From NCBI RefSeq assembly GCF_000020385.1, contig NC_010814.1, forward strand, positions 2,580,001 through 2,612,000: 32,000 nt of DNA, given 5' to 3'. The notes under the pieces were generated by a model. That model was given only the letters and a program-made list of their open reading frames with translations, searched no databases and was not told where the DNA came from. Positions within the stretch are counted from its first letter, which is position 1, and every line of letters begins with the position of its first letter. This document shows, piece after piece, positions 1 through 25,657 of this stretch. The position numbers and the translations under genes were made by a program. This stretch comes from Trichlorobacter lovleyi SZ. GTDB lineage: Bacteria; Desulfobacterota; Desulfuromonadia; Geobacterales; Pseudopelobacteraceae.

Positions 1-830
1 AGGTCATCGCTAACCACATGGCAGCAGCGGGCAATCGCCTCCAGCATCCCCAGCGGCGGCTGTTCGCAAAAGCAGCCGCACAGCACCACCCTGATCTTGT
101 CCTGCTGTTGGCGCTGCCGCATGGCCAGCAGGGGCAGCACCCGCTCCAGCAGACGGTTATGCTCTCCGGGCGGCAGCAGGCTCCCCACAGCGGTCAGCAG
201 GTAGTATTCATCCAGCGCCAGCTTTCGGGGTTCACGGGATTTCAGGGCCTGCAGCTCACGCAGCAGCCTGCGATGACGGTTATAGACAGCGATTGAGCGC
301 CGCACCGCCTCCAGCTCCAGCGGTCTGCCGGTCACCTCGCTCACCACGGCGGCAAGGCCGGCGTACTCCTGCCGCAGATAGTTCTCAGCAGCGGGAGCGG
401 TACTGTTTTGCGGCAGGTAGAGCGTCCGGCAGGGGGTACTGAAATTGCGGGACCAGATGGCAGGCAGGTTACGGGCCGCATCACAGATGGAAGGGACAAT
501 CAACAGATCCAGGCTGAGATCGCCCCCCTCCACCAGATTAAAGACCTGCTTGACCACTGAACAGAGGTAGGAACCGAAATGGGCGCCACCCGCCCCGCCG
601 TTGCCGGTGGTACAGCCCAGCTTCACCGCCAGCATCCCGGCAGCATCGGCAATCTCTTCAGGCATGTAGACCTGAAAATGCCCCAGCACCCTGCCCCCCT
701 GCTCCTGCCAGAGCCGGAGCGTGGGGAAGGTTGCATCGCAGAGCAGCTCCCGGCAGGCATCAAGGATCTCTTCCAGGGATGCATCGCAGGGCAGGCTCTG
801 ACCGAAAAAGAGAGGGGCACGCAGGTCCAT
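1..830 (-). CDS. 2-hydroxyacyl-CoA dehydratase / benzoyl-CoA reductase-type subunit (HGD-D family), partial; C-terminus lies left of the window
   Basis: Absent from the ORF track because it runs off the edge. Hand translation of the minus strand from ATG 830-828 gives MDLRAPLFFGQSLPCDASLEEILDACRELL..GHFQVYMPEEIADAAGML..LLIVPSICDAARNLPAIW..RVVLCGCFCEQPPLGMLEAIARCCHVVSDD, open to position 1. There is an in-frame stop upstream at 909-911. The Cys-containing motifs resemble HgdB/FldC/BcrB-type subunits. Confidence 0.7.
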   Translation of the reverse strand, partial: MDLRAPLFFGQSLPCDASLEEILDACRELLCDATFPTLRLWQEQGGRVLGHFQVYMPEEIADAAGMLAVKLGCTTGNGGAGGAHFGSYLCSVVKQVFNLVEGGDLSLDLLIVPSICDAARNLPAIWSRNFSTPCRTLYLPQNSTAPAAENYLRQEYAGLAAVVSEVTGRPLELEAVRRSIAVYNRHRRLLRELQALKSREPRKLALDEYYLLTAVGSLLPPGEHNRLLERVLPLLAMRQRQQQDKIRVVLCGCFCEQPPLGMLEAIARCCHVVSDD

Positions 831-958: not shown

Positions 959-1195
959 ATGGCCGCGACCGTAGATGAGATGAAAGAGCTGATGCTGCAG
1001 ATCGGGATGGACAAAGAACTGGTAGCCGGGCTTGACCCTGTTGCGCCGTTGGCAGGACAGGGGGTTGATTCAGTGGACTGCCCCGCCTTTGCGGTGGCAC
1101 TGGAAAACAGGTACAAGGTCAAGATATCCGACTCCGATTCCATGCAACTGAGGGCCATCAACGACTTTGTCGCCTTTGTGAACCGGACGGCATGA
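959..1195 (+). CDS. acyl carrier protein (ACP-1)
   Basis: 78 aa, acidic, with phosphopantetheine-attachment-like motif GQGVDSVDCPAF. AAGGAG RBS upstream. Its stop overlaps the next start (ATGA at 1192-1195). Confidence 0.8.
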   Translation: MAATVDEMKELMLQIGMDKELVAGLDPVAPLAGQGVDSVDCPAFAVALENRYKVKISDSDSMQLRAINDFVAFVNRTA

Positions 1196-2241
1196 CCCTG
1201 CGACAGGAAGCGATCAGGCGACTGGCAGCGGACAGCCGTCCGCTGCCGGAGACCGAGCCGTTCTCGACACGACTGTATCAGCCGGAAGACGGCTACGGGG
1301 TAACACGGCTGTTCTATGCCGTATATGGCGACGGCTATCCGGTCGACACCTTCTACCTGCCGGAACAGCTGACCGAAGAAAACCGGGCCGGCCGGATCAG
1401 GAGTGTCGTGGCCCGGACTGAGGACGGCCAGGTGGTCTCGCACATCGCCTTGTACCGCAGCTCTGCCCCCAACCCGGACCTGTATGAGTACGGCCTGGGG
1501 CTCACCCTGCCCGCCTACCGTGCCAGCCTTGCCTTTGCCCGCTGCAACAGCCTGTTGCTGTCACTGGTGGAAGATGGCGTTGTAGACTCTTTTTTTGGCG
1601 AGGCGGTCTGCAACCACATCATCACCCAGAAGCTTACCAGACAGAGCGGTGCCATAGAGACTGCGCTTGAAGCGGCACTGATGCCGGCCCGTGCCTACGA
1701 GGCAGAGCAGAGCGCAGACGGCAGGGTCGGCTGCATCATGTCATTCAAGGTCTGCCGTGACCGGATCCGGCCCCTCTGCATTCCCTCCTGTTACCACCAG
1801 GAACTGACATTCGCCATGGAGGGACTGAAGCTTGGGCGTGAACTGATTCCTGACAACGGCCAGCTCTCAGACGAGGGCTCACAGTTTGACACCGTCCGGT
1901 TTGACCATGCCGGTGTTGCCCGTTGTACCATCACCGCCCCGGGCAGAGACCTTGTCCCGCGGCTGTTGTCACTTGAAACAGAACTCCGGCAGGCCGGGTA
2001 TGCCGTGTTGCAGTGCTTTATTCCGCTGGGTGACAGCCGGGGCGCCGCAGCCGCCACCCTGCTGCAACAGGCCGGTTTTTTTCTGGGCGGTTTTCTGCCG
2101 GCCTGGTTTGGCGAGGATGGCCTGCTGATGCAAAAGCTGTTTATTGATCCCGGCTTTGAATCTCTGAAGCTGCATTCGGATCGGGCCCGCACGCTTGCCG
2201 CACTGGTGCGGAACGACTGGCAGCGCAGCCTGGAAGGATAG
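1192..2241 (+). CDS. two-domain GNAT-like acyltransferase, paralogue A
   Basis: 349 aa. N-terminal GNAT-like pattern YQPEDGYGVTRLFYAVYGDGYP..VVARTEDGQVVSHIAL..EYGLGLTLPAYR, central FGEAVCNHIITQK, C-terminal AGFFLGGFLPAWFGEDGLLMQKLF. By eye more than half of the residues are identical to the ORF at 4699-5802. Confidence 0.55.
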   Translation: MTLRQEAIRRLAADSRPLPETEPFSTRLYQPEDGYGVTRLFYAVYGDGYPVDTFYLPEQLTEENRAGRIRSVVARTEDGQVVSHIALYRSSAPNPDLYEYGLGLTLPAYRASLAFARCNSLLLSLVEDGVVDSFFGEAVCNHIITQKLTRQSGAIETALEAALMPARAYEAEQSADGRVGCIMSFKVCRDRIRPLCIPSCYHQELTFAMEGLKLGRELIPDNGQLSDEGSQFDTVRFDHAGVARCTITAPGRDLVPRLLSLETELRQAGYAVLQCFIPLGDSRGAAAATLLQQAGFFLGGFLPAWFGEDGLLMQKLFIDPGFESLKLHSDRARTLAALVRNDWQRSLEG

Positions 2242-2245
2242 TACG

Positions 2246-3526
2246 ATGGAACTGAGACTGGAGCTTGAACCGGCACGGATGCCGATGGCGGTCGCCTTTG
2301 CAGAAACTGCGGCACAGGGGGCCGGACTGGGCAGCCATGAGACCGCCATGCTGGCGCTCAGTGCCGAAGAGCTGTTCCTTGCACTCTGCAGCAGCATGCC
2401 CGGCGCTGAGCTGGTGGTCGGCTTTCTTGACCGGCGCTATGCGGTTGATCTGCTGTTCCAGATCCCCCGGCCACCGGCTGATCTGCGCATCTTCAACATC
2501 ACGGCCCGACCGGACCATGATTCCGAGGAAGGGCTGGCCGGCATGGGACTCTATCTGGCATCACGGGCCTGTGACCAGTTCAGTATCCAGCAACTAGCGT
2601 CAGGCAGCTGGAAGATCATGCTGCGCAAGGAGCGGAGCTACCCGCCCCATCCCGCTGCGCCGCTAACCGCACATGGAGAGGCCGTTGCATGGCAGATTGC
2701 CGCCGTGCCGGCACCGGATGCGGTCAAGCAGCTCTCAACACTGATCGGCAACAGCTATGCCGCCCTCCAGTTTCCCGAGACCTTCACCCCGCCGGGGCGG
2801 CTGCTGGACAAACTGGCCAGCAAGGAATACGGCGTCATCCTGGCACAGGACCCGCAGGGAGAACTGGCCGGCGGCCTGATCTGGCGTACCGGTGGCGGCA
2901 AGGTGGTGGAATGCTTCGGCCCCTACCTGCGCAGTCCTGCTACGGACGGCACCCTGGCAACAGCACTCTGCGAAAAGGTCGCCGAACAGTTCGGCCGCAG
3001 CGACCGGCTCGGCCTGGTGCTCTACGCCCCCCAGCAACCGCCCTCCACCGCCGGCTTCGAGGCTGCCGGACAGCTTGAGACACCCGGCGGCACGGTCTGG
3101 ACCGGCTACCGGATGCTGGCCGAGGAGTTTGGCGCCGACGCCTGGGTCCCGCAGGAGCTGCTGCCATTCTATCAGGAATGCTGCGCCGGCATGGTCCTGA
3201 CACGAAATATCCGTGCCTGCCAAGATGACGGCGAAACCGGCAACGGACTGACCCTGTTCGCTACCCGCATTGACCGTTCAAACGGCATGGCCCTGCTGAC
3301 GCCGCTTCTGGTGGGGCGCGATGCAGCAGACGTACTGCAGGAGCACCTGCAGCTGCTTGAGCAGGAGCAGTTTTCCGCCATCTACTGCACCCTGGACACC
3401 GGGCACCCGTTTGACGCCCTGCTTGCCCCCCACCTGTTGAGCCACGGGTTCCTGCCCCGGATTCTGGTCCCCTGGGGCGGCAGCGGTGACCTGATACAGC
3501 TGCACCGGATCAGGGGCAGCCGATGA
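2246..3526 (+). CDS. fusion: RsbW/SpoIIAB-like (HATPase-like) N-terminal module plus GNAT-like module (paralogue D)
   Basis: Start moved to ATG 2246 (MELRLELEP..), which has GGAAGGA 8 nt upstream; the 2195 start would overlap the previous gene. The N-terminal ~130 aa (AVAFAETAAQGAGL, ALSAEELFLAL, EEGLAGMGLYLASRACDQFSI) resembles anti-sigma serine-kinase folds but lacks an obvious N-box Asn. The C-terminal part repeats the paralogue architecture and ends HGFLPRILVPWGGSGDLIQLHRI. Confidence 0.45.
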   Translation: MELRLELEPARMPMAVAFAETAAQGAGLGSHETAMLALSAEELFLALCSSMPGAELVVGFLDRRYAVDLLFQIPRPPADLRIFNITARPDHDSEEGLAGMGLYLASRACDQFSIQQLASGSWKIMLRKERSYPPHPAAPLTAHGEAVAWQIAAVPAPDAVKQLSTLIGNSYAALQFPETFTPPGRLLDKLASKEYGVILAQDPQGELAGGLIWRTGGGKVVECFGPYLRSPATDGTLATALCEKVAEQFGRSDRLGLVLYAPQQPPSTAGFEAAGQLETPGGTVWTGYRMLAEEFGADAWVPQELLPFYQECCAGMVLTRNIRACQDDGETGNGLTLFATRIDRSNGMALLTPLLVGRDAADVLQEHLQLLEQEQFSAIYCTLDTGHPFDALLAPHLLSHGFLPRILVPWGGSGDLIQLHRIRGSR

Positions 3527-4692
3527 ATCTGGATACGCTGATGCCGCAGTATGTGCGGCAGTTTGAGACCTACATCCCCTCACCACCGGATGACGAGTTG
3601 AAACGGATGTTCGGGATCGAACGCCTGATCCGTCTGAACAATAACGAGAATCCGCTGGGACCACCCCCGGCAGTGGCCGCATTGCTGCGCAGCCTTGACC
3701 CGGCCCTGGTGCCCCGTTATCCCAGCGGTGACTGCTTTCACCTGCGTGAAAAGCTGGCCGCCCAGCTGGGGCTTACCCCCAAGCAGCTGCTCTTCGGCAA
3801 TGGCGCCAACGAGGTAATTGCCTTCGTGATCAAGGCCTTTTGCGAACAGGGCGACAACATCGTCACCGCCGACCGCACCTTTGCCGTCTATGAGTGGATT
3901 GCCCGTTTTTCCGGTCTGGAAGCCAGGCTTGCGCCGCTGAACGACTTCGGTTTTGATGAAGAGGCGCTGCTTGCACAGGTGGATCGCCGCACCAAGCTGG
4001 TCTTCATCTGCAACCCCAACAACCCCACCGGCAGCTGGTGGAGCCGTGACCGGTTGATCAGTTTTCTGGAACGGTTGGGCCCCGATCACCTGGTGGTACT
4101 GGACGAGGCCTATTGCGAATTCATGGATCAGCCCGACTACCCTGACGGCATCTCGCTCCTGTCCCGTTTTTCCAACCTGATCATATTCCGCACCTTCTCG
4201 AAGATGTACGGTCTGGCAGGCTTACGGATCGGCTACCTGGCAGGGGTGGAGCAGGTGGTGGACAGTATCCGCAAGACCTGCATTGTCTACTCGGTCAACA
4301 GCATTGCCCAGGTGGCGGCCCTGGCCGCCTTTGGCGATCAGGAGTTTATCCGCGCAACCCGCAGTATGGTGCGGGAAGGGCAGCAGATGCTGGCAGAGCT
4401 GTGCAGCACCCTGCAACTGCCGTTGCTGGCCGGTGACTGCAACTTTGCCATGATCAGGCTGCCGTTCAGCGACACCCTGGCCTACCGTTCGCTGATGCAA
4501 CAGGGGGTCATGATCCGCACCATGACCGCCTTCCGCTTTCCCGGCTGGATCCGGGTCAGCATCTCCACCCGTGACGAGATGCGGCTGTTCTGTGAGGCCC
4601 TGTCGCGGCTGGTTCACTCACGCACTGACCGGAACCCGCTGGCCAGGGCCTACGGCGTCAGCGGCTCCATGCCGCACATTTCGGCGGTTTAA
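3523..4692 (+). CDS. PLP-dependent class I/II aminotransferase, histidinol-phosphate/aromatic aminotransferase (HisC) family
   Basis: 389 aa with NNNENPLGPP, CNPNNPTG and the PLP-lysine motif FSKMYGLAGLRIGY. ATGA overlap with the previous gene. Confidence 0.85.
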   Translation: MNLDTLMPQYVRQFETYIPSPPDDELKRMFGIERLIRLNNNENPLGPPPAVAALLRSLDPALVPRYPSGDCFHLREKLAAQLGLTPKQLLFGNGANEVIAFVIKAFCEQGDNIVTADRTFAVYEWIARFSGLEARLAPLNDFGFDEEALLAQVDRRTKLVFICNPNNPTGSWWSRDRLISFLERLGPDHLVVLDEAYCEFMDQPDYPDGISLLSRFSNLIIFRTFSKMYGLAGLRIGYLAGVEQVVDSIRKTCIVYSVNSIAQVAALAAFGDQEFIRATRSMVREGQQMLAELCSTLQLPLLAGDCNFAMIRLPFSDTLAYRSLMQQGVMIRTMTAFRFPGWIRVSISTRDEMRLFCEALSRLVHSRTDRNPLARAYGVSGSMPHISAV

Positions 4693-4698
4693 CTCCCT

Positions 4699-5802
4699 AT
4701 GGAGATGACGCATGCCAAACAGGCCGCCCCCGCTGCAGCGGCAATGACGACCAGGGAGGCGGCGATCAGGCTGTTGGAAGGGGATACCCGGCCCTGGGCT
4801 GAGGGAGAACCGTTCACGGTACGCTTTTATCAGCCAGAGGACGGCTATGGCGTGGCCCGCCTGATCTACGCCGTGTATGGAAACGGCTACCCGATCGATA
4901 CCTTCTACATCCCTGAACAGTTGACTGAAGAAAACCGGGCCGGCCGGATCAAAAGTGTGGTTGCCCGCACCAGCAGCGGAGAGGTGATCTGCCATTTCTC
5001 GCTCCACCGCAGCTCCGCCCCCAATCCCGACATGTATGAAGCAGGCCTGGGGCTGACCCATCCGGCCTATCGAGCCTGCGGAGCCTTTGAACGCTGCTTC
5101 ACGCTGTTGTTCTCGCTGGTTGAAAACAATAGCGTCACGGCAATTTTCGGCGAGGCGGTCTGCAATCACACCATCACGCAGAAGATGGCTGAACCGGCAA
5201 AACTCGTCGAAACGGCCCTTGAAGTCGATCTGATGCCTGCCGACACCTATGCCAAAGAACGGGCTTCAGATGGCAGGGTCAGTTGTCTGATGTACTTCAG
5301 AATCGGTGCAGATCAACGGCGGCCGCTCTACATACCGGACTGTTATGCTGCTGAGATCAGGTTCATGATGGAAGGGATCACGCTTGAACGTGAGCTGCTC
5401 GGCAGCAGCGGGTCACAGCCCCTGCCTGCAGACTCAGAGCTGCAGACAGAGTCCTTCAGCTCGTCCGGCGTCTGCCGCTGCAGCATCATCAGACCGGGAC
5501 AGGATCTTGCCGGACGCCTTGCGGCACTGGAAGACGACCTTCGTTCCCGGGGGTATGCGCTGCTGGAGTGTTTTGTGCCGCTCGGCGTCCCGGAAGCGGC
5601 ATATTCCGTTGCGGCCCTGCGCACGGCCGGATTTTTTCTGGGTGGTTTTTTACCGTGCTGGTTCGGCGACGACGGCCTGTTGATGCTGAAGCTGTTCGGA
5701 ACAGCGGGCTTTGACAGCATCAAGCTCTTTTCTGAGCGGGGAAAGGCGATTATGGCGATGGTACGGGCGGACTGGGCACGGGCCTGCGGTCACGGCCGGT
5801 AG
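4699..5802 (+). CDS. two-domain GNAT-like acyltransferase, paralogue B
   Basis: Motifs YQPEDGYGVARLIYAVYGNGYP, FGEAVCNHTITQK, AGFFLGGFLPCWFGDDGLLMLKLF. The alternative start at 4744 (MTTREAAIRLL) aligns with the N-terminus of paralogue A (MTLRQEAIRRL). Confidence 0.55.
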   Translation: MEMTHAKQAAPAAAAMTTREAAIRLLEGDTRPWAEGEPFTVRFYQPEDGYGVARLIYAVYGNGYPIDTFYIPEQLTEENRAGRIKSVVARTSSGEVICHFSLHRSSAPNPDMYEAGLGLTHPAYRACGAFERCFTLLFSLVENNSVTAIFGEAVCNHTITQKMAEPAKLVETALEVDLMPADTYAKERASDGRVSCLMYFRIGADQRRPLYIPDCYAAEIRFMMEGITLERELLGSSGSQPLPADSELQTESFSSSGVCRCSIIRPGQDLAGRLAALEDDLRSRGYALLECFVPLGVPEAAYSVAALRTAGFFLGGFLPCWFGDDGLLMLKLFGTAGFDSIKLFSERGKAIMAMVRADWARACGHGR

Positions 5803-6668
5803 TCGTAGACCCCCTGCCCGCTCTTTCTCCCCAGCCGTCCCCTGGCAACATAGTCCCGCAGCAGCGGGGAGGCGGCATATTTGTGGTTGTCGATACCGTT
5901 TGCCAGGGTCTCCGTCGCCGCCAGAATCACATCAAGCCCGATCATATCGGCCAGGGCCAGCGGCCCCATCGGATGGTGGGCCCCCAGCTGCATGGCCGTA
6001 TCAATATCCTCAGCAGCGGCAATACCGTCCTGCAGCATACCGAACGCCTCGTTGATCAGGACACAAAGCAGCCGGGTGATGATAAAGCCGGGCTGGTCCT
6101 TGCTGCAGACCGACTGCTTGCCCAGGGCAGTCACCATCTGCCGGGCAATGTCGATGGTCCGGGGCGATGTCTCTGATCCGGCAATCAGCTCAACCAGCTC
6201 CATCAACGGCACCGGATTCATGAAATGCATACCGATGAACCGTTGCGGGATGCCTGAAGCGGCTCCCAGGGCGGTGATGGAGAGGCTGCTGGTACTGCTG
6301 GCCAGGATCGCCTCTTTGCCCAATACAGCTCCAAGTTCCGCAAGCAGCTCACACTTGGCTGCCATCTGCTCGGCAATCGCCTCGATCACCAGATCACAAT
6401 CAGACAGAGCAACAGGCTCATGACAATTGCTGATTCTGGCACGGATCACGGTTGGTTCCTCGCCGATCAGCCCCTTTTCATGCAGCTTGGCAAGGCTGGT
6501 CTCGATCCTCCCCGCGGCATCAGCAAGGGCTGACGCATGCCGGGCATACAGCCGTACCCTGAAACCTGCCATTGCAGCCAGTTGCGCAATGCCGGCCCCC
6601 ATACTGCCTGCCCCTGCCACACCGATCAGCGGTATCTCCCTGTTCATGACCATCTCCCGGAGCAGCAT
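5790..6668 (-). CDS. NAD-dependent 3-hydroxyacyl-CoA dehydrogenase (Hbd/FadB-like)
   Basis: Rossmann motif IGVAGAGSMGAGIAQ and HFMNPVPLMELVELI. A likelier start is ATG 6647 (MNREIP..), preceded by GGGAG. The 3' end overlaps the convergent gene by 13 nt. Confidence 0.85.
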   Translation of the reverse strand: MLLREMVMNREIPLIGVAGAGSMGAGIAQLAAMAGFRVRLYARHASALADAAGRIETSLAKLHEKGLIGEEPTVIRARISNCHEPVALSDCDLVIEAIAEQMAAKCELLAELGAVLGKEAILASSTSSLSITALGAASGIPQRFIGMHFMNPVPLMELVELIAGSETSPRTIDIARQMVTALGKQSVCSKDQPGFIITRLLCVLINEAFGMLQDGIAAAEDIDTAMQLGAHHPMGPLALADMIGLDVILAATETLANGIDNHKYAASPLLRDYVARGRLGRKSGQGVYDYRP

Positions 6669-6751: not shown

Positions 6752-7705
6752 ATGGACTACTCGCTCAAGAACGTCAGGATCGCCGGAACCGGTTCCGCAG
6801 TACCGGCAAGGATCGTTACCAATCAGGATATCAGCAACATGGGTGTGCCGGTCAAGGATGACTGGATCATTGAGAACCTTGGTATCCGGCAACGCCATAT
6901 CGCTGACAACGAAAGCACCACAGATCTGGCCACCCGGGCCGCCCTTGCGGCCATGGAAAACGCAGGGATCGACAGGGAAGAGATCAGCCTGATCCTGTTG
7001 GCCACCATTACCCCGGATCGCAAGGCCCCATCCACGGCCTGTCTGGTCAAACACCGGCTGGGGATGACCAACCTGGCCCCGGCCCTTGATATCTCAGCCG
7101 CCTGCTCCGGGTTCATGTACGGCCTGACCATTGCCGGCAACCTGATCCGTTCCGGGGTGCACAAGAATGCGCTGGTCATCTGTTGTGACCGGATGTCCAG
7201 CATCACTGACTGGTCACGCCGGGACTGCATTTTCTTCGGCGATGGCGCGGCAGCGGTCGTGCTGACCGAAAGCCGCTACGAAAACAGCCTGTTTGAGGCC
7301 AGGATCTTCTCAAACACCGAGTTTACCGACGGCGCAACGGTCTTTGAGGGAGACAGCGCCTTTACCATGGACGGCCATGCCGTGTACGAGGCCGCCTCCT
7401 CGGTGCTGCCCGGCTCGATTGTCTCGGTCCTGCTGCGTTGCGGCCTGAGCGAAGAGGATCTCACCTGGGTCATTCCCCACCAGCCCTCCATCAAGATCCT
7501 GAAAAAAATGGCGGAACAGCTGGGCATCCCGTTTGAGAAGGTCTGCCACAACATGGAGCGCTACGCCAACACCTCCGGGGTCTCGATTCCGCTGCTGCTG
7601 GATGAGGTCAACCGTGCCGGCAAACTGAAAAAGGATGACCTGGTCGCCTTTGCCGGTGTGGGAGCGGGTTGGACCTTCGGGGCAGCGATCTACCGCTGGC
7701 ACTGA
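6752..7705 (+). CDS. 3-oxoacyl-ACP synthase III (KAS III, FabH family), copy 2
   Basis: Start moved to ATG 6752 (MDYSLKNVRIAGTGSAVP), which has GGGGAG upstream. Catalytic triad motifs DISAACSGFMYGL, IPHQPS and YANTSGVSIP, with C-terminal GVGAGWTFGAAIYRW. Confidence 0.85.
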   Translation: MDYSLKNVRIAGTGSAVPARIVTNQDISNMGVPVKDDWIIENLGIRQRHIADNESTTDLATRAALAAMENAGIDREEISLILLATITPDRKAPSTACLVKHRLGMTNLAPALDISAACSGFMYGLTIAGNLIRSGVHKNALVICCDRMSSITDWSRRDCIFFGDGAAAVVLTESRYENSLFEARIFSNTEFTDGATVFEGDSAFTMDGHAVYEAASSVLPGSIVSVLLRCGLSEEDLTWVIPHQPSIKILKKMAEQLGIPFEKVCHNMERYANTSGVSIPLLLDEVNRAGKLKKDDLVAFAGVGAGWTFGAAIYRWH

Positions 7706-7718: not shown

Positions 7719-8057
7719 TCAGGCGGAAAGCGCTGCCAGCCCCTCATCAAGACCTTCATACAGTGCCACAAACTGGTTAAAACCGGCTATCTTGAACAGG
7801 TCTCTGACCGGCCCTGTCATGGCGCAGGCCGCAAGCCTGCCGCCACGTGCCTCAAGCAACTTGCAGATCTTCAGAATACTGCGCAATCCGGCACTGGTGA
7901 TATAGGTCAGAGCACTCATCTCCAGCAGGTAGGAGCGGCACTCCGGTTTATCCTGTCCGGCAAACCAGAGGTCAAAAAGCGGCGCAGCCCCGGAATCCAG
8001 CCGTCCGGTCAGGCTGATCACAGCGACATCACCTTCAAATCTGATTGTAGATTCCAT
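7719..8057 (-). CDS. STAS-domain protein (anti-sigma-factor antagonist family)
   Basis: 112 aa, ..VAVISLTGRLDSGAAP..LTYITSAGLRSILKICKLL.. Typical SpoIIAA/RsbV-like pattern including the conserved Ser. Confidence 0.85.
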   Translation of the reverse strand: MESTIRFEGDVAVISLTGRLDSGAAPLFDLWFAGQDKPECRSYLLEMSALTYITSAGLRSILKICKLLEARGGRLAACAMTGPVRDLFKIAGFNQFVALYEGLDEGLAALSA

Positions 8058-11572: not shown

Positions 11573-11579
11573 TAAGCTA

Positions 11580-12071
11580 TCACCCTTCACCCTTCACCCT
11601 TGCAGCTTTCTCAACCGCATCCACAATCCTGACATAGCCGGTGCAGCGGCAGAGATTGCCGGACAACCCTTCCTTGATCTGTTCCCGGCTCAGCGGTTCA
11701 CCCTGCCGCAGCAGCGCCAGCGAGGCCATCTCCATGCCGGGAATACAGTAGCCGCACTGCACCGCCCCTTCTTCAGCAAAGGCGGCCATCAGGGTGCGCC
11801 CCTCGTCAGTCTGCTGCAGCGCCTCAACCGTTTCCACCTGCCGTCCCTCAAGCTGGGCCGCCAGCATCAGGCAGGCCAGTTTCGGCAGACCATCCACCAG
11901 GATGGTGCAGGCCCCGCATTCACCGGTGCCGCAGCCTTCCTTGCTGCCGGTCAGACCCAGATCTTCACGCAGCAGATCGATCACCCGGCGCTCGGCAACG
12001 GTCTCAAGCACCGTTGCCTGCCCGTTCAGGGTAAAACGGATGGTCCGGTTATGCTGTAACATGGCTGTCAA
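11580..12071 (-). CDS. (2Fe-2S)-binding small subunit of a molybdenum hydroxylase
   Basis: GCGTGECGACTILVDG, CGYCIPG and NLCRCTGY cluster motifs. Confidence 0.9.
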   Translation of the reverse strand: MTAMLQHNRTIRFTLNGQATVLETVAERRVIDLLREDLGLTGSKEGCGTGECGACTILVDGLPKLACLMLAAQLEGRQVETVEALQQTDEGRTLMAAFAEEGAVQCGYCIPGMEMASLALLRQGEPLSREQIKEGLSGNLCRCTGYVRIVDAVEKAARVKGEG

Positions 12072-12291
12072 TGTAGGCGATCATCTCACCGACCGTCTTG
12101 GTCGCCACGGCATCCTCTTTGCTGATCGTGAGACCAAAGGCCTCCTCGGTCAGCACCAACAGTTCCATCATTGCCAGGGAATCCAGACCGAGGTCGCTGC
12201 GCAGATCAGCAGCAGGCACAATCTTCTCCACAGCCACCTTGCCCTTGCCTGCCTTCTGGATCAATCCCTGTACCTTCTCAAATCTCGTCAT
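12049..12291 (-). CDS. acyl carrier protein (ACP-2)
   Basis: 80 aa with DLGLDSLAMMELL motif. ATGA overlap with the upstream GNAT-like gene. Confidence 0.8.
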   Translation of the reverse strand: MTRFEKVQGLIQKAGKGKVAVEKIVPAADLRSDLGLDSLAMMELLVLTEEAFGLTISKEDAVATKTVGEMIAYIDSHVTA

Positions 12292-13319
12292 TCCTGTTCT
12301 CCTTTCCTTTGTACCGCTTCACGATCCGAGCGGATGTCATGCAGCATCTTTCTGGCAACGCCAGTGTAGAGCTTGATACCGTCATAATCCGGCTCTTTGC
12401 CGAACAGCTGTTGCAGCATCACGCCGTCATTGCCAAACCAGCGGGGGTACAGCCCCCCGATAAAGAACCCCCGTTGCCGCAGCTGAGCCACAGCCTCGCT
12501 GATGCAGGGCAGCGCCGTTGAAACAATCAGCTGGAGACAGACTGTTTTCCGTTCCCGGCTTTTGACCAGAATCCGGTCCAGAAACATCCCCCAGTCTTCT
12601 CCGATTACACTGACGGAAAAACGCCAGGTTCCGGCCTCTTCAAACCAGTGGTCAGTGGCGACCGTCTCCCCATGCCGGGGCAGTGGCGAAGTACCGGGCA
12701 GCAAAATACGGGGACGCAGCCGTTCATAGATCCCGTGCAAAAAGGCACGGTACTGTTCAGGCAGGTAACAGGGGCCTTGCGGATCAGACAGTTCATACAA
12801 CTGCACCACACAGGCCACCCGTTCCGTTTCAGGGCGATGCTCGGAGAAACTGGCGCCATCAAGCAGGTCAAGCGCCAGGCCGCACTCCTGAAACCCCAGC
12901 TTGACCGCCCCCACCTGGGTAAAATAGTGATGGCAGACCGCTTCTCCAATGATGCCGTCAGACTGCAGACCGGGCAGATTTCCCGGCTGCAGGTAATGCT
13001 GCATCAGTCCCCAGCCCAGTTCATCCTTGCCGCCACCGGGCACAACCACCAGATTTCCCCCTTCCCAGAGGTTCGGGTTGGGGGCGCATTTAAAGAACGA
13101 GACATAGCCGATTGCGTTCCCTTTGCTGTCAAACGCAAGTGAGGCGGCAAGCCGTCCGGCCCTGATCTCTTCCATGACCAGGGCGGCATGGTAGACATAC
13201 GGTACCGGAAAGCCGTCGCCATAGACCGATCTGAAGACCGTGGCCACCTCTGCTGCATTGGAAGCGTCTACGGGTTGTATGGTGTAGCCTGTTTCAGGCA
13301 TGACGTCCTTTCCTGCCAT
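12288..13319 (-). CDS. two-domain GNAT-like acyltransferase, paralogue C
   Basis: 343 aa, divergent from A and B but with the same landmarks: VATVFRSVYGDGFPVPY, IIGEAVCHHYFTQV, RGFFIGGLYPRWFGNDGVMLQQLF. Flanked on both sides by ACP genes with 1-nt and 4-nt overlaps. Confidence 0.5.
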   Translation of the reverse strand: MAGKDVMPETGYTIQPVDASNAAEVATVFRSVYGDGFPVPYVYHAALVMEEIRAGRLAASLAFDSKGNAIGYVSFFKCAPNPNLWEGGNLVVVPGGGKDELGWGLMQHYLQPGNLPGLQSDGIIGEAVCHHYFTQVGAVKLGFQECGLALDLLDGASFSEHRPETERVACVVQLYELSDPQGPCYLPEQYRAFLHGIYERLRPRILLPGTSPLPRHGETVATDHWFEEAGTWRFSVSVIGEDWGMFLDRILVKSRERKTVCLQLIVSTALPCISEAVAQLRQRGFFIGGLYPRWFGNDGVMLQQLFGKEPDYDGIKLYTGVARKMLHDIRSDREAVQRKGEQE

Positions 13320-13561
13320 CAGGAGACGACGGTCCCCTCGATAAAGGCCAGTATACCGCCAATAGTGGTCACCTTTGCGGCCTCCTCAAGCCCGACCGTG
13401 ATGGCGAACGTATCCTCCACCAGCACGATCAGCTCAGACTGCGCCAGGGAATCCAGCCCCAGGTCTTCATTCAGCCGGGCCTCCGGTGTCAACACCGCCT
13501 CCGACAGCCGCCCCTTGCTGACCTTGACAACCAGTTGTTGCAGTTTTTCCATGGTGTTCAT
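13319..13561 (-). CDS. acyl carrier protein (ACP-3)
   Basis: Start set at ATG 13561 (MNTMEKLQQ), 7 nt after GGAAGGAG. Motif DLGLDSLAQSELI. Confidence 0.8.
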   Translation of the reverse strand: MNTMEKLQQLVVKVSKGRLSEAVLTPEARLNEDLGLDSLAQSELIVLVEDTFAITVGLEEAAKVTTIGGILAFIEGTVVS

Positions 13562-13587
13562 CGTCCATCTCCTTCCACCCTTGAAAT

Positions 13588-14589
13588 TCACTCCTCAACG
13601 GAGTGCCAACGCACGAGAGCCGATCCCCAACTGACGCCGCCACCGAATCCGGTCAGTACCAGCCGGTCGCCATGCCTGATCCGTCCCGCATGCAGGACGT
13701 TATGCAGAGCGATCGGGATTGAGGCGGCCGAGGTATTGCCGCACTGCTCGAGATCTATCACGATTTTATCCATCGGCAGGTCCAGACGCCCGGCTGCAGC
13801 CTCAATAATCCGGCGATTGGCCTGGTGGGGGATGAACAGATCAATATCCTCCAATGACAGTCCTGCCTTCTGTATGACCCGCATGGCCGAATTGCCCAGG
13901 ACCCGCATGGCAAACATAAAGACCTGCTGTCCATCCATCCGTACATACTGCAACTGTTCGGCCAGGGCCTCAGGGGAAGCCGGAAGCCGGCTGCCGCCTG
14001 CCGGAATGACAATCGCCCCATGTTCAGAACCGATGCTGCCCGCATCAGTGGCCAGCAGCCCGTAGCCGTCAGGCACAGCACCGAGCACCACGGCACCGGC
14101 ACCGTCACCGAACAGGATCGCGCTGTCACAGTCCGCAGGGCTGGCAACCTGTGACAGCACCTCGGCGCCGATCAGCAGCACCTTGGGGCAGAACCCGCAG
14201 GAGACGGCATGGCACGCAACCACCAGCCCGTAGACAAACCCCGAGCAGGCAGCAGACAGATCAAAACAGGCTGCCGCTGGTATACCCAGCGCCCCCTGAA
14301 CAATGGCTGCCGTGGCAGGCATCCGGTAATCAGCGGTGGAGGTGGCCATGATCACCATACCGATCTCATCCGGTGTGGTTCCTGAGGCCGTAAGTGCCTG
14401 ACGGGCCGCAGCAATGGCCAGATCAGAACAGGCCTGTCCGGGAGCAACAATCCGGCGGTTATGAATGCCGGTCCGCTCATAGATCCAATCGGTTGTGACC
14501 CCGAAGTGCTCTGCCAGTTCCTGATTGCTCAAAACATTGTCCGGCAGATAGGCGCCGGTCCCCAGAATGCCTGCCCCGATCGTTATCAT
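13588..14589 (-). CDS. 3-oxoacyl-ACP synthase III (KAS III, FabH family), copy 1
   Basis: 333 aa: GTGAYLPDNVLSNQEL, DLSAACSGFVYGL, IPHQANRRII, CGNTSAASIP, GFGGGVSWGSALVRW. Confidence 0.9.
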   Translation of the reverse strand: MITIGAGILGTGAYLPDNVLSNQELAEHFGVTTDWIYERTGIHNRRIVAPGQACSDLAIAAARQALTASGTTPDEIGMVIMATSTADYRMPATAAIVQGALGIPAAACFDLSAACSGFVYGLVVACHAVSCGFCPKVLLIGAEVLSQVASPADCDSAILFGDGAGAVVLGAVPDGYGLLATDAGSIGSEHGAIVIPAGGSRLPASPEALAEQLQYVRMDGQQVFMFAMRVLGNSAMRVIQKAGLSLEDIDLFIPHQANRRIIEAAAGRLDLPMDKIVIDLEQCGNTSAASIPIALHNVLHAGRIRHGDRLVLTGFGGGVSWGSALVRWHSVEE

Positions 14590-14852
14590 ACGCCCCTCTC
14601 GCCACCCACGTGCGGCAGCCGCTCCATAACCAGATCAACACAGTCTCCCACAGACCGCAGCCTGAAAAGATCTGCATCATCGATTGCAATTGTCAAGCGG
14701 TCTTCCAGGGCAAGCACCAGCTGCACAAACCGGATTGAGTCAATGCCAAGATCACGCTGCAGGTGTTGCTGTGCCTGAAATACCGGGCCGCTGCCGGGCA
14801 GCAGCTCATGCAGAATGGCGCTAACCTCAGCACAGGCCTGCTCCCTGTTCAT
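14586..14852 (-). CDS. divergent acyl carrier protein (ACP-4)
   Basis: Start set at ATG 14852 (MNREQACAEV), after GAGGGAGGA. Motif DLGIDSIRFVQLVLALE. ATGA overlap with fabH copy 1. Confidence 0.65.
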   Translation of the reverse strand: MNREQACAEVSAILHELLPGSGPVFQAQQHLQRDLGIDSIRFVQLVLALEDRLTIAIDDADLFRLRSVGDCVDLVMERLPHVGGERGV

Positions 14853-14883
14853 CGCTATCCTCCCTCGGCTCATAGAGCGGACA

Positions 14884-16173: not shown

Positions 16174-16222
16174 ACAGGTAGCCCTCTGTCAGCCCGCAGG
16201 AATAAACGGTACGCCAGGTATC

Positions 16223-16579
16223 TTACGGTATGAGTGCAATGGTTACGGCAACAGCGCCGTTGCTATCCACAGTTACCGCGTAATTGGTGGTTGCTGACGG
16301 CGTGGCAACGGTGTAGCTGCCCAGCAACGGATTTGCCCCGCCGGCAGTATTCACCACATTGATCTTGTCGATGCTCTTGCTGATGAAGGTGGTGTAGGTG
16401 CGTGAATCTCCCGGATAGACGGTTACCTGGCTCTCCGAGCTGCCGGCATGAATGCCGACCCTGACGGCGCTTGCAAACTTGTTGCTGATGGCAACGGTGC
16501 CGGCCCCGGCGTCTGCCTGGAACAGCAGCACGGAAAACAGCAGTACCATCAAACCGCTGGCACGGTATCCCTTTTTCAT
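16223..16579 (-). CDS. small secreted protein, unknown function
   Basis: Strong RBS (AAGGAGGA). Signal peptide MKKGYRASGLMVLLFSVLLFQADA. Ser/Thr/Val-rich beta-type composition. Confidence 0.65.
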   Translation of the reverse strand: MKKGYRASGLMVLLFSVLLFQADAGAGTVAISNKFASAVRVGIHAGSSESQVTVYPGDSRTYTTFISKSIDKINVVNTAGGANPLLGSYTVATPSATTNYAVTVDSNGAVAVTIALIP

Positions 16580-17186: not shown

Positions 17187-17187
17187 A

Positions 17188-23368: not shown

Positions 23369-25657
23369 TTATCCCGTCTGCCCAGCCAGCACCCGTTCCG
23401 GTGTCAACGGGCCATGGCAAAGCCGCACGCCACAGGCATCAGCCACGGCATTGGCAACCGCAGGCAAGGGGCCGTTCATGGCCACCTCACCGATCCCCTT
23501 CATACCAAAGGGGCCGGTCTCTTCCGGCTCTCCCTGGGCTGCAATGGAGATAATCTCCGGGATATCCAGGCTACCGGGAATCAGGTAGGTGGCAAAATCC
23601 GGGGTCTTTACCATGCCACCCTGCACCGCAAAATCCTCCATCAAGGCATAGCCCAGACCTTGCCCTACCCCGCCCTGCACCTGCTGATCAAACATGCCTG
23701 GGTTCAGCACCCTGCCGCCGTCAGTCACGGCCAGGTAGTCGCAGACCGTGATCTGGCCGGTCAGGCTGTCCACCTCCAGCCGCACCAGATGGGCGCCATA
23801 CCCAAAGATCACATGGGGAAAGCCGATAAAGAAGCCTTTGGCAGTGGCAGGCACCTCTTTGCAGGTGGGGGCCACGTACTGGCCCAGGCAGACCCGTTCT
23901 TCCGGCTGCATGTAGCCAGCCAGCGCAACAAGACTGATCTCTTTCTGGCTGGGCAGATGGACCACCCTGCCCGGCTGCAGTTCCAGGCCATCATTATCCT
24001 GCAGAAACAGGATCATCCCGGCCCAGTTGAGCAGGCGGGACTTGAGTTCTTCAGTTGCGGTGATCAATGCCTTGCCAAAGGTGTAGGTGGTGCGGCCAGC
24101 TGAGGATGAGCCGGAGGGATAGGCGGTGCGGGTATCAGGCTGTTTCAATAGGACACGGGGAGCATCCTGTGACAGGATATGTCCGGCGATCTGCAGAAAG
24201 GCCGAGGAGTTGCCCTGACCCATGTCAGCCACTGCATTATGGATCAGAAAAGTGCCTTCCGGGGTCAGCTCTATCTTGGCAGTGGCAGCATCCCGCACCC
24301 CACCACCGTACCCGGCAGCATTAAAAACCGAAGCAAGACCAATGCCGCGCTTTTTGTACGCTGGCGCTGCTGCCTTCCATTGTTCCCGCTCCTGCCAGTA
24401 CGGGTGTTGTTGCAGCTGTTCCAGACAGGTCTTGATACCGGTGGAGCTGGTTAAACGGACACCGGCGCAGTTTTCATCTCCCCGCACCAAAGCATTTTTC
24501 AGACGCAGCTCCAGCGGGTCCATGCCCAACTTAGTGGCCAGCAGATCCATCATGGATTCAAAGCCAAAGCTGGCCTGACAGACCCCAAAGGCCCGCATGG
24601 CCCCGGCAACCGGGTTGTTGGTGTAGACGCACCAGCCTTCAATCAGGGTATGGGGGATGCGGTAGGGACCACCGGCATGCTCCATGCCCAGCTCCATCAC
24701 CTCGGCCCCCAGGTGGGCATAGGCGCCGGTGTCGTACCAGAGCCTGGCATGCAGCGCCTGCAGGGTGCCGTCTGCTGCAGCGCCCAGTTTATATTCCATC
24801 CTGCAGGCATGGCGTTTGTAGCCTGCCTTGAAGCTCTCTTCCCGATCCCACTGCATCCGCACCCAGCGTCCGCCTGCGTGTTGTGCTGCCAGCCCCAGCA
24901 GGCACTGTACGGTAGCGCCGTCCTTGCCGCCAAAACCGCCCCCCAGCGAAGGGGCAACAATCCGGATCTTGCCCCAGGGGATGCCCAGGGCATGGCTGAT
25001 CTCAAAGCGGTCACGGAACGGGGATTGGGTGGAGACCTCCATCAGCAGGCCGCCATCTTCCTCCATGCGGGCCAGACCGCTTTCGGTTTCCAGAAAGGCG
25101 TGGGCCTGTACCGGAGTGCTGAAGCTGCCTTCAACCACCACGCTACAGTCTGCAAAGCCATCCAGACCAGTGCCTTTGCAGATGCTGGCCTGGGCCAGCA
25201 GGTTGTTGGGCTTGTCTTCATGGATCAGCGGTGCATCCGCTGCCAGGGCTGCATCCAGATCAAAGAGACCGGGCAGCGGTTCAAGCTGCAGCTGTACCGC
25301 AGCAATGCCACGCTGCAGCGCTTCTTTGGTCTCTGCCAGCACCAGGGCCAGCGGATCGCCGCAGTAGCGCACCACCTCATTACACAGCACCGGCATATCT
25401 TTATGGATGATCCCCTGACGGTTGCTGGCAATAACATCAGCAGCGGTCAGTACCTTGACCACACCGGGCAGTGCTGCTGCAGCCGTGGTATCAATGCTGA
25501 TGATCCGCCCGCAGGCCAGGTTGGAGCGGACCGCACCGGCCCAGAGGCAGTCTTGCGGATACAGATCAGCAGCGTACCGTTCTGTGCCGGCTGCCTTGGC
25601 AGCGGCATCGCCGCGGGGATGGGCCGTTCCTATGCTGAGCGGTGTAACGCCGGCCAT
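23369..25657 (-). CDS. molybdopterin-binding large subunit of a xanthine dehydrogenase/aldehyde oxidase-family hydroxylase
   Basis: 762 aa. N-terminal hammerhead-like GTERYAADL..AGAVRS..GRIISIDT..ALPGVVKVLTAADV, and the GGGFGGK motif (SLGGGFGGKDG). Confidence 0.9.
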   Translation of the reverse strand: MAGVTPLSIGTAHPRGDAAAKAAGTERYAADLYPQDCLWAGAVRSNLACGRIISIDTTAAAALPGVVKVLTAADVIASNRQGIIHKDMPVLCNEVVRYCGDPLALVLAETKEALQRGIAAVQLQLEPLPGLFDLDAALAADAPLIHEDKPNNLLAQASICKGTGLDGFADCSVVVEGSFSTPVQAHAFLETESGLARMEEDGGLLMEVSTQSPFRDRFEISHALGIPWGKIRIVAPSLGGGFGGKDGATVQCLLGLAAQHAGGRWVRMQWDREESFKAGYKRHACRMEYKLGAAADGTLQALHARLWYDTGAYAHLGAEVMELGMEHAGGPYRIPHTLIEGWCVYTNNPVAGAMRAFGVCQASFGFESMMDLLATKLGMDPLELRLKNALVRGDENCAGVRLTSSTGIKTCLEQLQQHPYWQEREQWKAAAPAYKKRGIGLASVFNAAGYGGGVRDAATAKIELTPEGTFLIHNAVADMGQGNSSAFLQIAGHILSQDAPRVLLKQPDTRTAYPSGSSSAGRTTYTFGKALITATEELKSRLLNWAGMILFLQDNDGLELQPGRVVHLPSQKEISLVALAGYMQPEERVCLGQYVAPTCKEVPATAKGFFIGFPHVIFGYGAHLVRLEVDSLTGQITVCDYLAVTDGGRVLNPGMFDQQVQGGVGQGLGYALMEDFAVQGGMVKTPDFATYLIPGSLDIPEIISIAAQGEPEETGPFGMKGIGEVAMNGPLPAVANAVADACGVRLCHGPLTPERVLAGQTG

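Follow-up and report, generated by a model that had tools for sequence, protein, structure and literature searches.

Two-domain GNAT-like acyltransferases encoded alongside acyl carrier proteins in Trichlorobacter lovleyi SZ

A 32,000-nucleotide stretch of the Trichlorobacter lovleyi SZ genome (NC_010814.1, positions 2,580,001 to 2,612,000; hereafter the window, to which all coordinates refer) encodes several copies of a GNAT-like protein, and some of the genes overlap genes for acyl carrier proteins (ACPs). This raises the question of whether the acyl group is taken from a carrier protein or from CoA. Copies A, B and C are members of a two-domain acyltransferase family that is unnamed and uncharacterised. 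The explanation that we favor, with a probability of about 0.6, is that these are two-domain GNATs of which A and C use donors bound to carrier proteins and B uses acyl-CoA, while a more distant relative, D, is regulatory.

Fold and conserved residues of paralogues A, B and C

Paralogues A (1192..2241, plus strand, 349 amino acids), B (4699..5802, plus strand, 367 amino acids) and C (12288..13319, minus strand, 343 amino acids) have the coordinates and reading frames given in an earlier note made from the sequence, and they are true paralogues, as that note had also held. A and B share 59% identity, and A and C share 29% identity over 333 residues (BLASTP E 2e-39), with C representing a distinct subfamily. 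The three landmarks that the copies had been said to share are real and rank as the most conserved parts of the family among 99 aligned members. Y45, G46, E99, Q146, P198 and D309 are invariant in that alignment, E137, H142, R178, R244 and W305 are kept in at least 98 of the 99, and C140 is kept in 93, with Thr in five members and Leu in one. Within the protein, conservation is highest in the C-terminal hairpin, G-F-F-x-G-G...P-x-W-F-x-x-D-G. The family comprises about 2,300 clusters at 50% identity, mainly from anaerobes, and the C subfamily has 92 clusters, ACP fusions among them. Neither A, B, C nor D matched any Pfam, NCBIfam or PDB sequence model.

The AlphaFold (AF2) model of A (pLDDT 91.6) contains an N-terminal catalytic GNAT domain (residues ~20-187) and a C-terminal GNAT-like domain (~190-349; pLDDT 94.4 for its model). 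A Foldseek search with the N-terminal domain matched many GNAT structures (best E 5.7e-9), which places A in the GNAT superfamily as proposed. The tandem fold was clear in this half and weaker in the other: the top 50 matches of the C-terminal domain were GNAT proteins only, at a best E of 2.4e-3 and TM scores of 0.36-0.47. The closest structural neighbours of the N-terminal domain were the small-molecule N-acetyltransferases RimJ, ArsN/PAT, SpeG and YncA. The segment previously taken as the CoA-binding loop is in the right place, between beta4 (98-105) and alpha3 (114-127). The donor thioester would sit between beta4 and beta5 of the N-terminal domain, in a reaction centre that would be lined by E99 of beta4 and by E137-x-x-C140-x-H142-x-x-x-Q146 at the end of beta5 and start of alpha4. 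The V-Y-G-x-G-(Y/F)-P motif lies in the alpha1-alpha2 acceptor loop, and the C-terminal domain is presumably a degenerate GNAT-like unit.

Carrier protein genes and the state of the CoA-binding loop

Four ACP genes are present: ACP-1 (959..1195, plus strand, 78 amino acids, serine in GVDSVD; PF00550 E 4.4e-5, 24.1 bits against a cut-off of 20.8), ACP-2 (12049..12291; E 4.8e-12), ACP-3 (13319..13591; E 6.9e-8) and ACP-4 (14586..14873; E 5.8e-10), the last three on the minus strand. All four exceed the PF00550 threshold and keep the serine of D-S-(L/V/I). The true start of ACP-3 may be an ATG near 13561; its counterpart in T. lovleyi loci is called as an 80-amino acid gene. The overlaps described earlier were read directly from the sequence: the ACP-1 stop overlaps the A start in ATGA at 1192-1195, the ACP-3 stop meets the C start in TGATG at 13319 (1 nt), and the C stop overlaps the ACP-2 start in ATGA at 12288-12291. 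A FabH-type KAS III gene (13588..14589, minus strand; PF08541 and PF08545) is joined to both ACP-4 and ACP-3 by 4-nt overlaps. No ACP gene adjoins B or D.

Similar linkage is found in relatives. An ACP1-type gene lies directly upstream of the A-type gene in most close relatives, and A-type genes are typically preceded by a benzoate-CoA-ligase-family gene and an ACP, with contiguous Ligase-ACP-GNAT triads in 21 of 78 loci; the ligase of these triads scored 469.9 bits against TIGR02262 (cut-off 375). C-type genes had an ACP directly upstream and FabH adjoining in all four other loci. An ACP gene stands on either side of C, in the window as well as in locus L082, whereas all A-type and most C-type loci have only one adjoining ACP. 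Fusions include ACP-GNAT (P0024, P0164, P0315 and P0277), AMP-binding-GNAT, that is ligase-GNAT (P0170 and P0221), AMP-binding-GNAT-aromatic lyase (P0191) and the NRPS protein P0183 (GNAT-C-A-PCP). Every fusion checked has a P-loop lacking the glycine.

The P-loop itself differs among the copies. A (R110-A-S-L-A-F) has lost the glycine, B (R-A-C-G-A-F) retains both the Arg and the first Gly, and C is fully degenerate, as is the loop in 86 members of its subfamily, across which the Arg is not conserved. We compared loop state, scored by the glycine of R-x-x-G, with ACP adjacency in 96 relatives. An ACP adjoined 0 of 39 glycine-keeping members and 33 of 57 members without the glycine (Fisher p 2.6e-10); a phylogeny-aware simulation gave p ~0.015. 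Few independent evolutionary changes lie behind the association (six parsimony changes of the glycine). The remaining 24 of the 57 have no adjoining ACP. Members with an adjoining ACP have an alpha3 helix of greater hydrophobicity and positive charge, although this is weak support, since relatedness is a confounder.

Loss of the CoA-binding loop in the copies that adjoin ACP genes suggests that their acyl group comes from a carrier protein instead. The earlier proposal of an acyl-ACP donor is thus plausible for A and C, but cannot be extended to the entire family: about 40% of the sampled relatives have a canonical loop, R-x-x-G-x-(G/N/A/F), and no ACP nearby, and for that subfamily the proposal is refuted on the terms of the earlier note itself. 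Nor does B belong with the ACP-linked copies: it goes with the glycine-keeping, ACP-less members. Its glycine is not conserved, however, in the only other B-type orthologue sampled, which has His there (locus L010). According to a published structural study, P-loop substitution is a hallmark of GNATs that depend on carrier proteins; in one of these, SbzI, reinstating the canonical loop reduced activity to 2-5% (PMC11685415). As phosphopantetheine retains a phosphate, a degenerate loop is compatible with CoA use.

Proposed donors, acceptors and cluster partners

In the ancestral type the CoA pyrophosphate loop (R-x-x-G-x-G/N/A) would have been normal and the donor probably acyl-CoA, with the A-type and C-type lineages losing the loop glycine and coming to be encoded beside a dedicated carrier protein. 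For A, the donor would most likely be an aromatic or other acyl group loaded onto ACP-1 by the benzoate-CoA-ligase-family enzyme, a route from adenylating enzyme to carrier protein to GNAT with the logic of SbzL/SbzG/SbzI. For C, it would most likely be a product built by the neighbouring FabH on ACP-3 or ACP-4. B probably still uses acyl-CoA, as it keeps R-x-x-G and has no ACP.

Several other explanations have to be weighed. Atypical loops also occur in some bona fide CoA-dependent GNATs, and A-D could be ordinary acyl-CoA-dependent N-acyltransferases of this kind, next to ACPs only because the operon has FabH-type chain-building enzymes. We regard this as unlikely. It fits the CoA-dependent enzymes found as nearest structures, the canonical-loop, ACP-less part of the family and the glycine-less members without an ACP, but it sits poorly with the lack of any ACP beside glycine-keeping members, the stop/start overlaps joining ACP and GNAT genes, the several independent ACP-GNAT fusions, and the Ligase-ACP-GNAT triads, in which A-type genes follow an ACP even where there is no FabH. 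C and perhaps A could also be decarboxylases of the CurA/GphF loading-module type that convert malonyl- or carboxyacyl-ACP to a primer for FabH without acylating an amine. GNAT-like decarboxylases that depend on a carrier protein have been described as a class (PMC11685415), C-type genes always adjoin FabH and an ACP, and the family His (H142) is invariant with Cys or Thr two residues earlier. Against this, A-type genes usually have an aryl-acid ligase and no FabH, the conserved acceptor-loop motif and second domain suggest a second substrate, and CurA and GphF are absent from the top 50 structural matches, making this reading quite improbable.

The ACP genes on both sides of C, together with the near-constant Cys140 close to His142, would also suit transacylases that shuttle intermediates among the carrier proteins of the cluster, ACP to ACP or ACP to CoA, through an acyl-Cys140. 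The replacement of this residue by Thr or Leu in six members, the single adjoining ACP of most C-type and all A-type loci, and the lack of any ACP for glycine-keeping members make such a role very doubtful. FemX-type enzymes likewise have two GNAT-like domains in one chain of ~350 residues, and an aminoacyl-tRNA donor, as in Fem/L-F-transferases, could be imagined. We give this very little credence, as there was no Fem-family Pfam match, Fem proteins were not among the top structural matches, and part of the family has a canonical CoA loop while the rest is linked to ligase and ACP genes.

For the favored carrier-protein route, the acceptor is the least certain part. The wider conserved partners of the family are D, a HisC-like aminotransferase, an XDH-type molybdoenzyme, an MFS transporter and a STAS protein. 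The class I/II aminotransferase (3523..4692, plus strand; PF00155 E 2e-53; TIGR01141 301 bits against a cut-off of 276.55) overlaps the D stop by 4 nt, and the two are the most conserved neighbour pair. On the minus strand lie the MFS transporter (9588-10742), the FAD (10742-11590) and 2Fe-2S (11580-12071) subunits of the XDH-family enzyme, and its molybdopterin-binding large subunit (23369..25657), which resembles pucD, XdhA and 4-HBCR-alpha, all below equivalog cut-offs; this last is displaced from its partners in the window and contiguous with them in most other loci. As a guess from this context, the acceptor would probably be an amine or amino acid tied to the aminotransferase and molybdoenzyme, with the MFS protein moving substrate or product. 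Some loci carry an E1-lipoyl-FabH fusion, and there the acyl chain could alternatively be made from a 2-oxo acid provided by the aminotransferase. At the left edge, the N-terminal 276 amino acids of a BcrC/HGD-D-type subunit are encoded (3..830, minus strand; tblastn 99.3% identity to T. lovleyi locus L001), and past this edge lie the other parts of a four-subunit benzoyl-CoA-reductase-like enzyme, along with the benzoate-CoA-ligase-family gene.

D (2246..3526, plus strand, 426 amino acids) had been described as a paralogue with a weaker version of the landmarks. A remote kinship was found (pairwise E 0.04 with A, marginal; hhalign of 34 D-family against 35 A-family sequences, 95.4% probability, E 2e-8, D 148-410 on A 22-304), but the D alignment shows no conservation of the E-x-x-C-x-H motif, and an RsbW/SpoIIAB-like HATPase_c_2 domain (~1-130) preceding the catalytically degenerate two-domain GNAT module had been overlooked. 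Of the 34 D-family members, 15 matched PF13581 (best E 1.4e-5); the D of the window scored only E 0.19. As D lacks the catalytic motif and looks regulatory, we rejected it as a fourth transferase acting in succession with A, B and C. A single-domain STAS protein of the anti-sigma-factor-antagonist type (7719..8057, minus strand; TIGR00377 56.3 bits against a cut-off of 53.45), encoded in 22 of the 42 loci that span 15 kb or more, is probably the partner of this domain in a regulatory pair. This arrangement recalls RsbW/SpoIIAB with RsbV/SpoIIAA, but the domain in D is fused to a pseudo-GNAT module and seemingly lacks the N-box Asn and D-x-G-x-G box (alignment judged by eye), and the cluster showed no sigma factor gene.

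Comparison with known systems

The earlier note had pointed to LuxI-, OlsB- and HlyC-type enzymes, but nothing links the family to these specifically. The best N-terminal domain matches, PAT/ArsN/YncA, RimJ and SpeG (E 5.7e-9 to 1e-6; TM on target 0.64-0.79), acylate amino groups of amino-acid-like substrates, but share only 10-15% sequence identity, are single-domain, CoA-dependent enzymes with a canonical P-loop, and have neither the E-x-x-C-x-H motif nor the W-F-x-x-D-G hairpin of the C-terminal domain. MshD, glycine N-acyltransferase and MAB_4324c have two GNAT-like domains per chain, one catalytic and one degenerate. The likeness to these is architectural only, without a significant sequence or profile match; three family members gave weak Pfam-scan matches to Gly_acyl_tr_C (best E 0.09).

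FeeM and SbzI are known examples of GNATs that have a degenerate P-loop and depend on a carrier protein; both were absent from the top Foldseek matches and had no detected sequence similarity to the family. FeeM, a GNAT-fold enzyme with an altered P-loop, acylates an amino acid with a fatty acyl group supplied by its dedicated ACP, FeeL (PMC11685415). It is single-domain and LuxI-like, and for the present proteins an aromatic donor (A) or one made by FabH (C) is more likely. The three-gene logic of Ligase/ACP-1/A equals that of SbzL/SbzG/SbzI in the altemicidin pathway, where a free-standing carrier protein receives an acid from an adenylating enzyme and the GNAT passes it to an amine, and the Q/R-x-x-G-x-G/A loop of SbzI is substituted, as in A and C (PMC11685415). 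SbzI is single-domain; here there is a second GNAT-like domain as well as the E-x-x-C-x-H motif, and some members of the family have an intact CoA loop.

Fold and sequence family of the GNAT-like proteins

Three paralogues of an uncharacterised GNAT-like acyltransferase family were placed on a gene map built from an ORF listing and domain scans of the window: A (1192-2241, +), B (4699-5802, +) and C (12288-13319, -). A is 59% identical to B and 29% identical to C across 333 residues (BLASTP E 2e-39), and three landmark motifs make up the conserved core of the family. The sequence itself gives an ATGA overlap between the carrier-protein gene ACP-1 (959-1195, +) and A, a TGATG overlap between ACP-3 (13319-13591, -) and C, and an ATGA overlap between C and ACP-2 (12049-12291, -). 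All four window carrier proteins, including ACP-4 (14586-14873, -), passed the PP-binding threshold in the domain scan. No dedicated carrier-protein gene lies beside B or beside D (2246-3526, +), the gene following A. The identities, alignment and junctions bear out the earlier observation of paralogues that share three motifs and overlap ACP genes.

None of A, B, C and D matched a Pfam or NCBIfam model (Pfam E <= 0.1), and the acetyltransferase model PF00583 was reached by only two relatives (P0119, E 3e-6; P0200, E 4.6e-4). PDB sequence searches with A alone, with an A-family profile and with a D-family profile gave nothing useful; the sole match, reovirus sigma-NS at E 1.5, was set aside as chance. 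A was modelled with AlphaFold2 from 35 homologues (pLDDT 91.6, pTM 0.87), and the model was compared with the PDB using Foldseek. There were 552 matches at E <= 0.001, and the best 50 of the 552 were all GNATs spanning the N-terminal half of A only, led by RimJ (E 5.7e-9) and including ArsN/PAT, SpeG and YncA, with a TM-score on the target of at most 0.79. In the model the N-terminal domain runs E24-28, H31-45, H52-65, E69-76, E81-89, E98-105, H114-127, E133-139, H143-151, E155-165 and E178-187 (E, strand; H, helix), which matches the mixed alpha/beta GNAT order beta1-alpha1-alpha2-beta2-beta3-beta4-alpha3-beta5-alpha4-beta6-beta7. The C-terminal domain modelled alone (pLDDT 94.4) also had only GNATs among its best 50 PDB matches, in this case weak ones (best E 2.4e-3, TM 0.36-0.47) aligning about 100 columns of the beta4-to-beta7 core. 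From the results for the two halves, we call A a clear catalytic GNAT domain followed by a putative second domain of degenerate GNAT-like type, as judged from the models. The GNAT placement made earlier is supported at the strength of the N-terminal match.

The conserved residues map to recognisable positions in the model of A. The V-Y-G-x-G-Y-P segment is part of the alpha1-alpha2 loop, which in GNATs usually shapes the acceptor site. E99 is in beta4, and E137, C140, H142 and Q146 sit where beta5 ends and alpha4 begins; H142 is conserved in the family together with C or T at position 140. Kinship with LuxI, HlyC or OlsB, enzymes named as parallels in the earlier note, was weighed and dropped, with neither sequence nor structural evidence in its favour: the Pfam and NCBIfam scans gave no match to LuxI-type autoinducer synthases, and no LuxI-family structure was among the best 50 Foldseek matches.

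A profile of the family was searched against 1.84 billion cluster representatives and recovered 1,661 at E <= 1e-10, a number that rises to 2,339 at E <= 0.001. Relatives are encoded in 191 species-representative genomes. At 50% identity the family forms about 2,300 clusters; it has no Pfam or NCBIfam model, and for this reason almost all of its members carry the annotation hypothetical.

Loop state and carrier-protein adjacency

The segment singled out by the earlier note is the true position of the CoA pyrophosphate-binding loop (P-loop, Q/R-x-x-G-x-G/A), between beta4 and alpha3 of the model. The loops of A (R-A-S-L-A-F) and C (G-K-D-E-L-G) are both non-canonical, and that of B (R-A-C-G-A-F) is a partial match. 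The P-loop is not essential for membership of the GNAT superfamily, since known carrier-protein-dependent GNATs also do without it.

Ninety-six family members were aligned, and an HMM made from the ACPs of the cluster was used to decide whether an ACP-like ORF lay no more than 200 nt from each gene. Glycine at motif position 4 (R-x-x-G) is kept in 39, for example as R-G-S-G-V-N, R-G-A-G-I-G or R-G-G-K-G-I-F, and an ACP adjoins 33 of the 96. None of the 39 glycine-keeping members is ACP-adjacent, compared with 33 of the 57 without glycine (Fisher p 2.6e-10, a value inflated by relatedness). Because of this inflation, ACP adjacency was simulated under a fitted two-state model on a neighbour-joining tree, on which the glycine state requires only 6 parsimony changes; zero overlap arose in 71 of 4,717 size-matched simulations (p ~0.015). 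A comparison of hydrophobicity and charge in the alpha3 helix was suggestive but is confounded by relatedness.

The ACP-linked members without glycine fall into three groups. The A-type clade has R-x-x-(L/M/T)-A-F, and in most cases its genes come after one for a benzoate-CoA-ligase-family enzyme and one for an ACP; a neighbouring clade with R-x-x-F-A-A has the same ligase-ACP-GNAT triad. The third group is the C-type clade, a subfamily of 92 clusters in which even the P-loop Arg is not conserved. C-type genes lie beside FabH and an ACP, and four further C-type loci each have an ACP directly upstream and an adjacent FabH. With the conserved H142 and C/T140, this setting may recall the CurA/GphF-type GNAT-like decarboxylases, whose hallmarks are a catalytic His with a Thr/Ser partner and a place beside an ACP where a chain-building module begins. 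B falls within the A-type clade without an ACP; the reversion of B to glycine is weak evidence, as His replaces it in the one other B-type orthologue sampled. Four family paralogues in tandem were seen in a Desulfarculus MAG (L080, 6815-11002), with K, R, G and G at motif position 4 and the usual neighbours absent within 10 kb.

In some relatives the GNAT is fused to further domains. ACP-GNAT fusions are P0024, P0164, P0315 and P0277, together with P0326, which its source names as an acyl carrier protein. An AMP-binding domain precedes the GNAT in P0170 and follows it in P0221, a GNAT-lyase fusion is found in P0167, an AMP-binding-GNAT-aromatic-amino-acid-lyase fusion in P0191, and a GNAT-condensation-adenylation-PCP (NRPS) fusion in P0183. 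All fusions checked (ACP-, ligase- and NRPS-fused) have a non-glycine P-loop. P0024 is a partial MAG protein for which an assembly or frameshift artefact was considered, and it carries little weight alone; the ACP-GNAT pattern is credible because of the four independent fusions P0164, P0315, P0277 and P0326. The fusions tie the family to the activation of acids, to carrier proteins and to acids derived from aromatic amino acids. Those with an aromatic amino acid ammonia-lyase (PAL/TAL/HAL type) or an NRPS module suggest that other lineages use acyl groups from aromatic acids and a chemistry like that of secondary metabolism.

The proposal that these enzymes use acyl-ACP instead of acetyl-CoA as donor is supported in part. 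For A and C, predicted use of acyl-ACP is reasonably supported by the loop without glycine, the gene overlaps and the split in ACP adjacency; it is not supported for B, for D or for the family as a whole.

Paralogue D and the conserved neighbourhood

D relates to A only at the level of profiles. In BLASTP, D showed marginal or no similarity to A and C (E 0.04 for A), but a profile of 34 D homologues from related loci matched that of the A family over its two halves (D 148-410 against A 22-304; probability 95.4%, E 2e-8). By this comparison D is a remote paralogue of the A family. The E-x-x-C-x-H motif is not conserved among the 34 homologues. The first ~130 residues of D (2246-2640) form an extra domain, and 15 of the 34 match the RsbW/SpoIIAB-type model PF13581 (HATPase_c_2; best E 1.4e-5), with the window's own D at E 0.19, under the Pfam gathering score. 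Since, by eye, the ATPase domain appears to lack its N-box Asn and D-x-G-x-G box, D is probably a non-catalytic sensor or adaptor, paired with the STAS protein of anti-sigma-antagonist type (7719-8057, -) that is a frequent single-domain member of the cluster. Together they could form a metabolite-sensing partner-switch; no sigma factor gene was seen in the cluster. It had been suggested that A to D act as four successive transferases, which is unlikely because D looks regulatory. A second STAS gene lies at 27335-27670.

Downstream of D are a HisC-type aminotransferase (3523-4692, +; TIGR01141, 301 bits, above cut-off), B, a 3-hydroxyacyl-CoA dehydrogenase (5790-6668, -) and FabH (6752-7705, +). 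Beyond the STAS gene follow a MobA-like nucleotidyltransferase (8091-8675, -), XdhC (8672-9595, -), an MFS transporter (9588-10742, -) and the FAD (10742-11590, -) and partner 2Fe-2S (11580-12071, -) subunits of an XDH-family molybdoenzyme. A second FabH (13588-14589, -) separates ACP-3 from ACP-4. The ACP/FabH operon ends (14884-16579) with a DUF5122 beta-propeller lipoprotein (429 aa; 14884-16173, -) and a small secreted protein of 118 aa with no family, and the T. lovleyi loci carry the same pair. In some strains or relatives the FabH beside the C-type gene is replaced by a fusion of about 1,110-1,130 aa (L001 20033-21104; L082 3345-6737) comprising a 2-oxoacid dehydrogenase E1 (E1_dh, transketolase domains), a lipoyl domain and FabH, which would link 2-oxo-acid decarboxylation directly to chain priming.

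The Mo-binding large subunit lies 11 kb off (23369-25657, -). After it come genes for a response regulator (25661-26041) and a histidine kinase (26038-27090), and another kinase/regulator pair is at 16773-18294. Between the cluster and this displaced subunit stands a stretch of lower GC (18300-23300; 0.47-0.53 against ~0.60), which suggests an inserted island splitting the molybdoenzyme genes. It encodes an NTP_transf_8 nucleotidyltransferase (19909-20937), a secreted cytidine-deaminase-like protein (21611-22195) and a HEPN-domain protein (22335-23303).

At the left edge of the window is the N-terminus of a BcrC/HGD-D-type subunit (830 to 3, -), 99% identical to a Trichlorobacter lovleyi locus. 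Further upstream, the syntenic T. lovleyi region encodes a benzoyl-CoA-reductase-like enzyme of four subunits, along with a benzoate-CoA-ligase-family protein. In the T. lovleyi group this enzyme, benzoyl-CoA-reductase-like or 2-hydroxyacyl-CoA-dehydratase-like and made up of two HGD-D and two BcrAD_BadFG subunits, is inserted between the ligase and ACP-1 (L001 558-6132); other genera have the genes for ligase, ACP and GNAT directly next to one another. Speculatively, the HisC-type aminotransferase and the BcrBCAD/2-hydroxyacyl-CoA-dehydratase-like enzyme might give the T. lovleyi type an anaerobic route to an aryl acid similar to those of the lyase fusions.

Neighbourhoods were sampled at 78 loci of relatives by searching six-frame ORFs with the window proteins. 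Most loci came from relatives of Geobacter, Trichlorobacter, Desulfuromonas, Desulfobulbus, Desulfobacter, Syntrophus/Smithella, Syntrophorhabdus, Desulfomonile and Desulfarculus, and the most general neighbourhood consisted of D, the aminotransferase, the Mo/FeS/FAD subunits, MFS, GNAT and STAS. In the 42 loci that span 15 kb or more, the aminotransferase was present in 32, D in 31, MFS in 29, the Mo subunit in 26, STAS in 22, and the ligase and ACP in 17 each, so that ACP is not a universal partner of the family. Ligase, ACP and GNAT were contiguous in 21 of the 78. The family also flags a conserved molybdenum-hydroxylase neighbourhood in relatives of Geobacter, Desulfobulbus, Syntrophus, Smithella, Syntrophorhabdus and Desulfomonile.

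Read jointly, these observations may describe a family in which remodelling of one loop has switched the acyl donor, at least twice, between CoA and dedicated carrier proteins, and which marks a widespread, unannotated anaerobe pathway making or processing N-acylated metabolites under a metabolite-sensing partner-switch; we give this tentative reading roughly one chance in four. The pathway would comprise the pseudo-GNAT/RsbW-like D, HisC-type aminotransferase, XDH-type molybdenum hydroxylase, MFS transporter, GNAT and STAS protein, and its products would share a common head group with lineage-specific acyl tails (acyl-CoA-derived, aryl-ACP-derived or FabH-built).

Comparison with known carrier-protein-dependent GNATs

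GNATs that depend on a carrier protein form a small, established class that includes FeeM, SbzI, GdvG/AprG and the GNAT-like decarboxylases of CurA/GphF; the few known are unrelated in sequence (PMC11685415). A substituted Q/R-x-x-G-x-G/A loop is characteristic of them, and grafting the canonical loop onto SbzI reduced its activity to 2-5% (PMC11685415). PDB sequence searches with single sequences and profiles detected no homology between the present family and a characterised member of this class, and FeeM, SbzI and CurA were missing from the best 50 Foldseek matches. No publication on the family or gene cluster was found within the literature open to search, PMC2996986 included. The concept is known; the family, its architecture, the donor switch proposed within it and the conserved molybdoenzyme neighbourhood are not described in that literature.

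How a GNAT comes to prefer a donor bound to a carrier protein over CoA is little understood. Loop-intact and loop-degenerate members here offer a natural comparison within one set of homologues, and as they can be aligned residue by residue and both kinds occur in the window (B versus A and C), loop-swap experiments are straightforward.

The adenylating enzyme, carrier protein and GNAT of the SbzL/SbzG/SbzI system follow the same logic as the ligase, ACP-1 and A. As in FeeM, SbzI and GdvG/AprG, the P-loop is substituted in A, C and the checked fused relatives, whereas B keeps the first Gly, and a carrier protein is encoded with A and C but not with B or D. Unlike those enzymes, the present family is two-domain, has its own conserved motifs and mixes loop-intact with loop-degenerate members.
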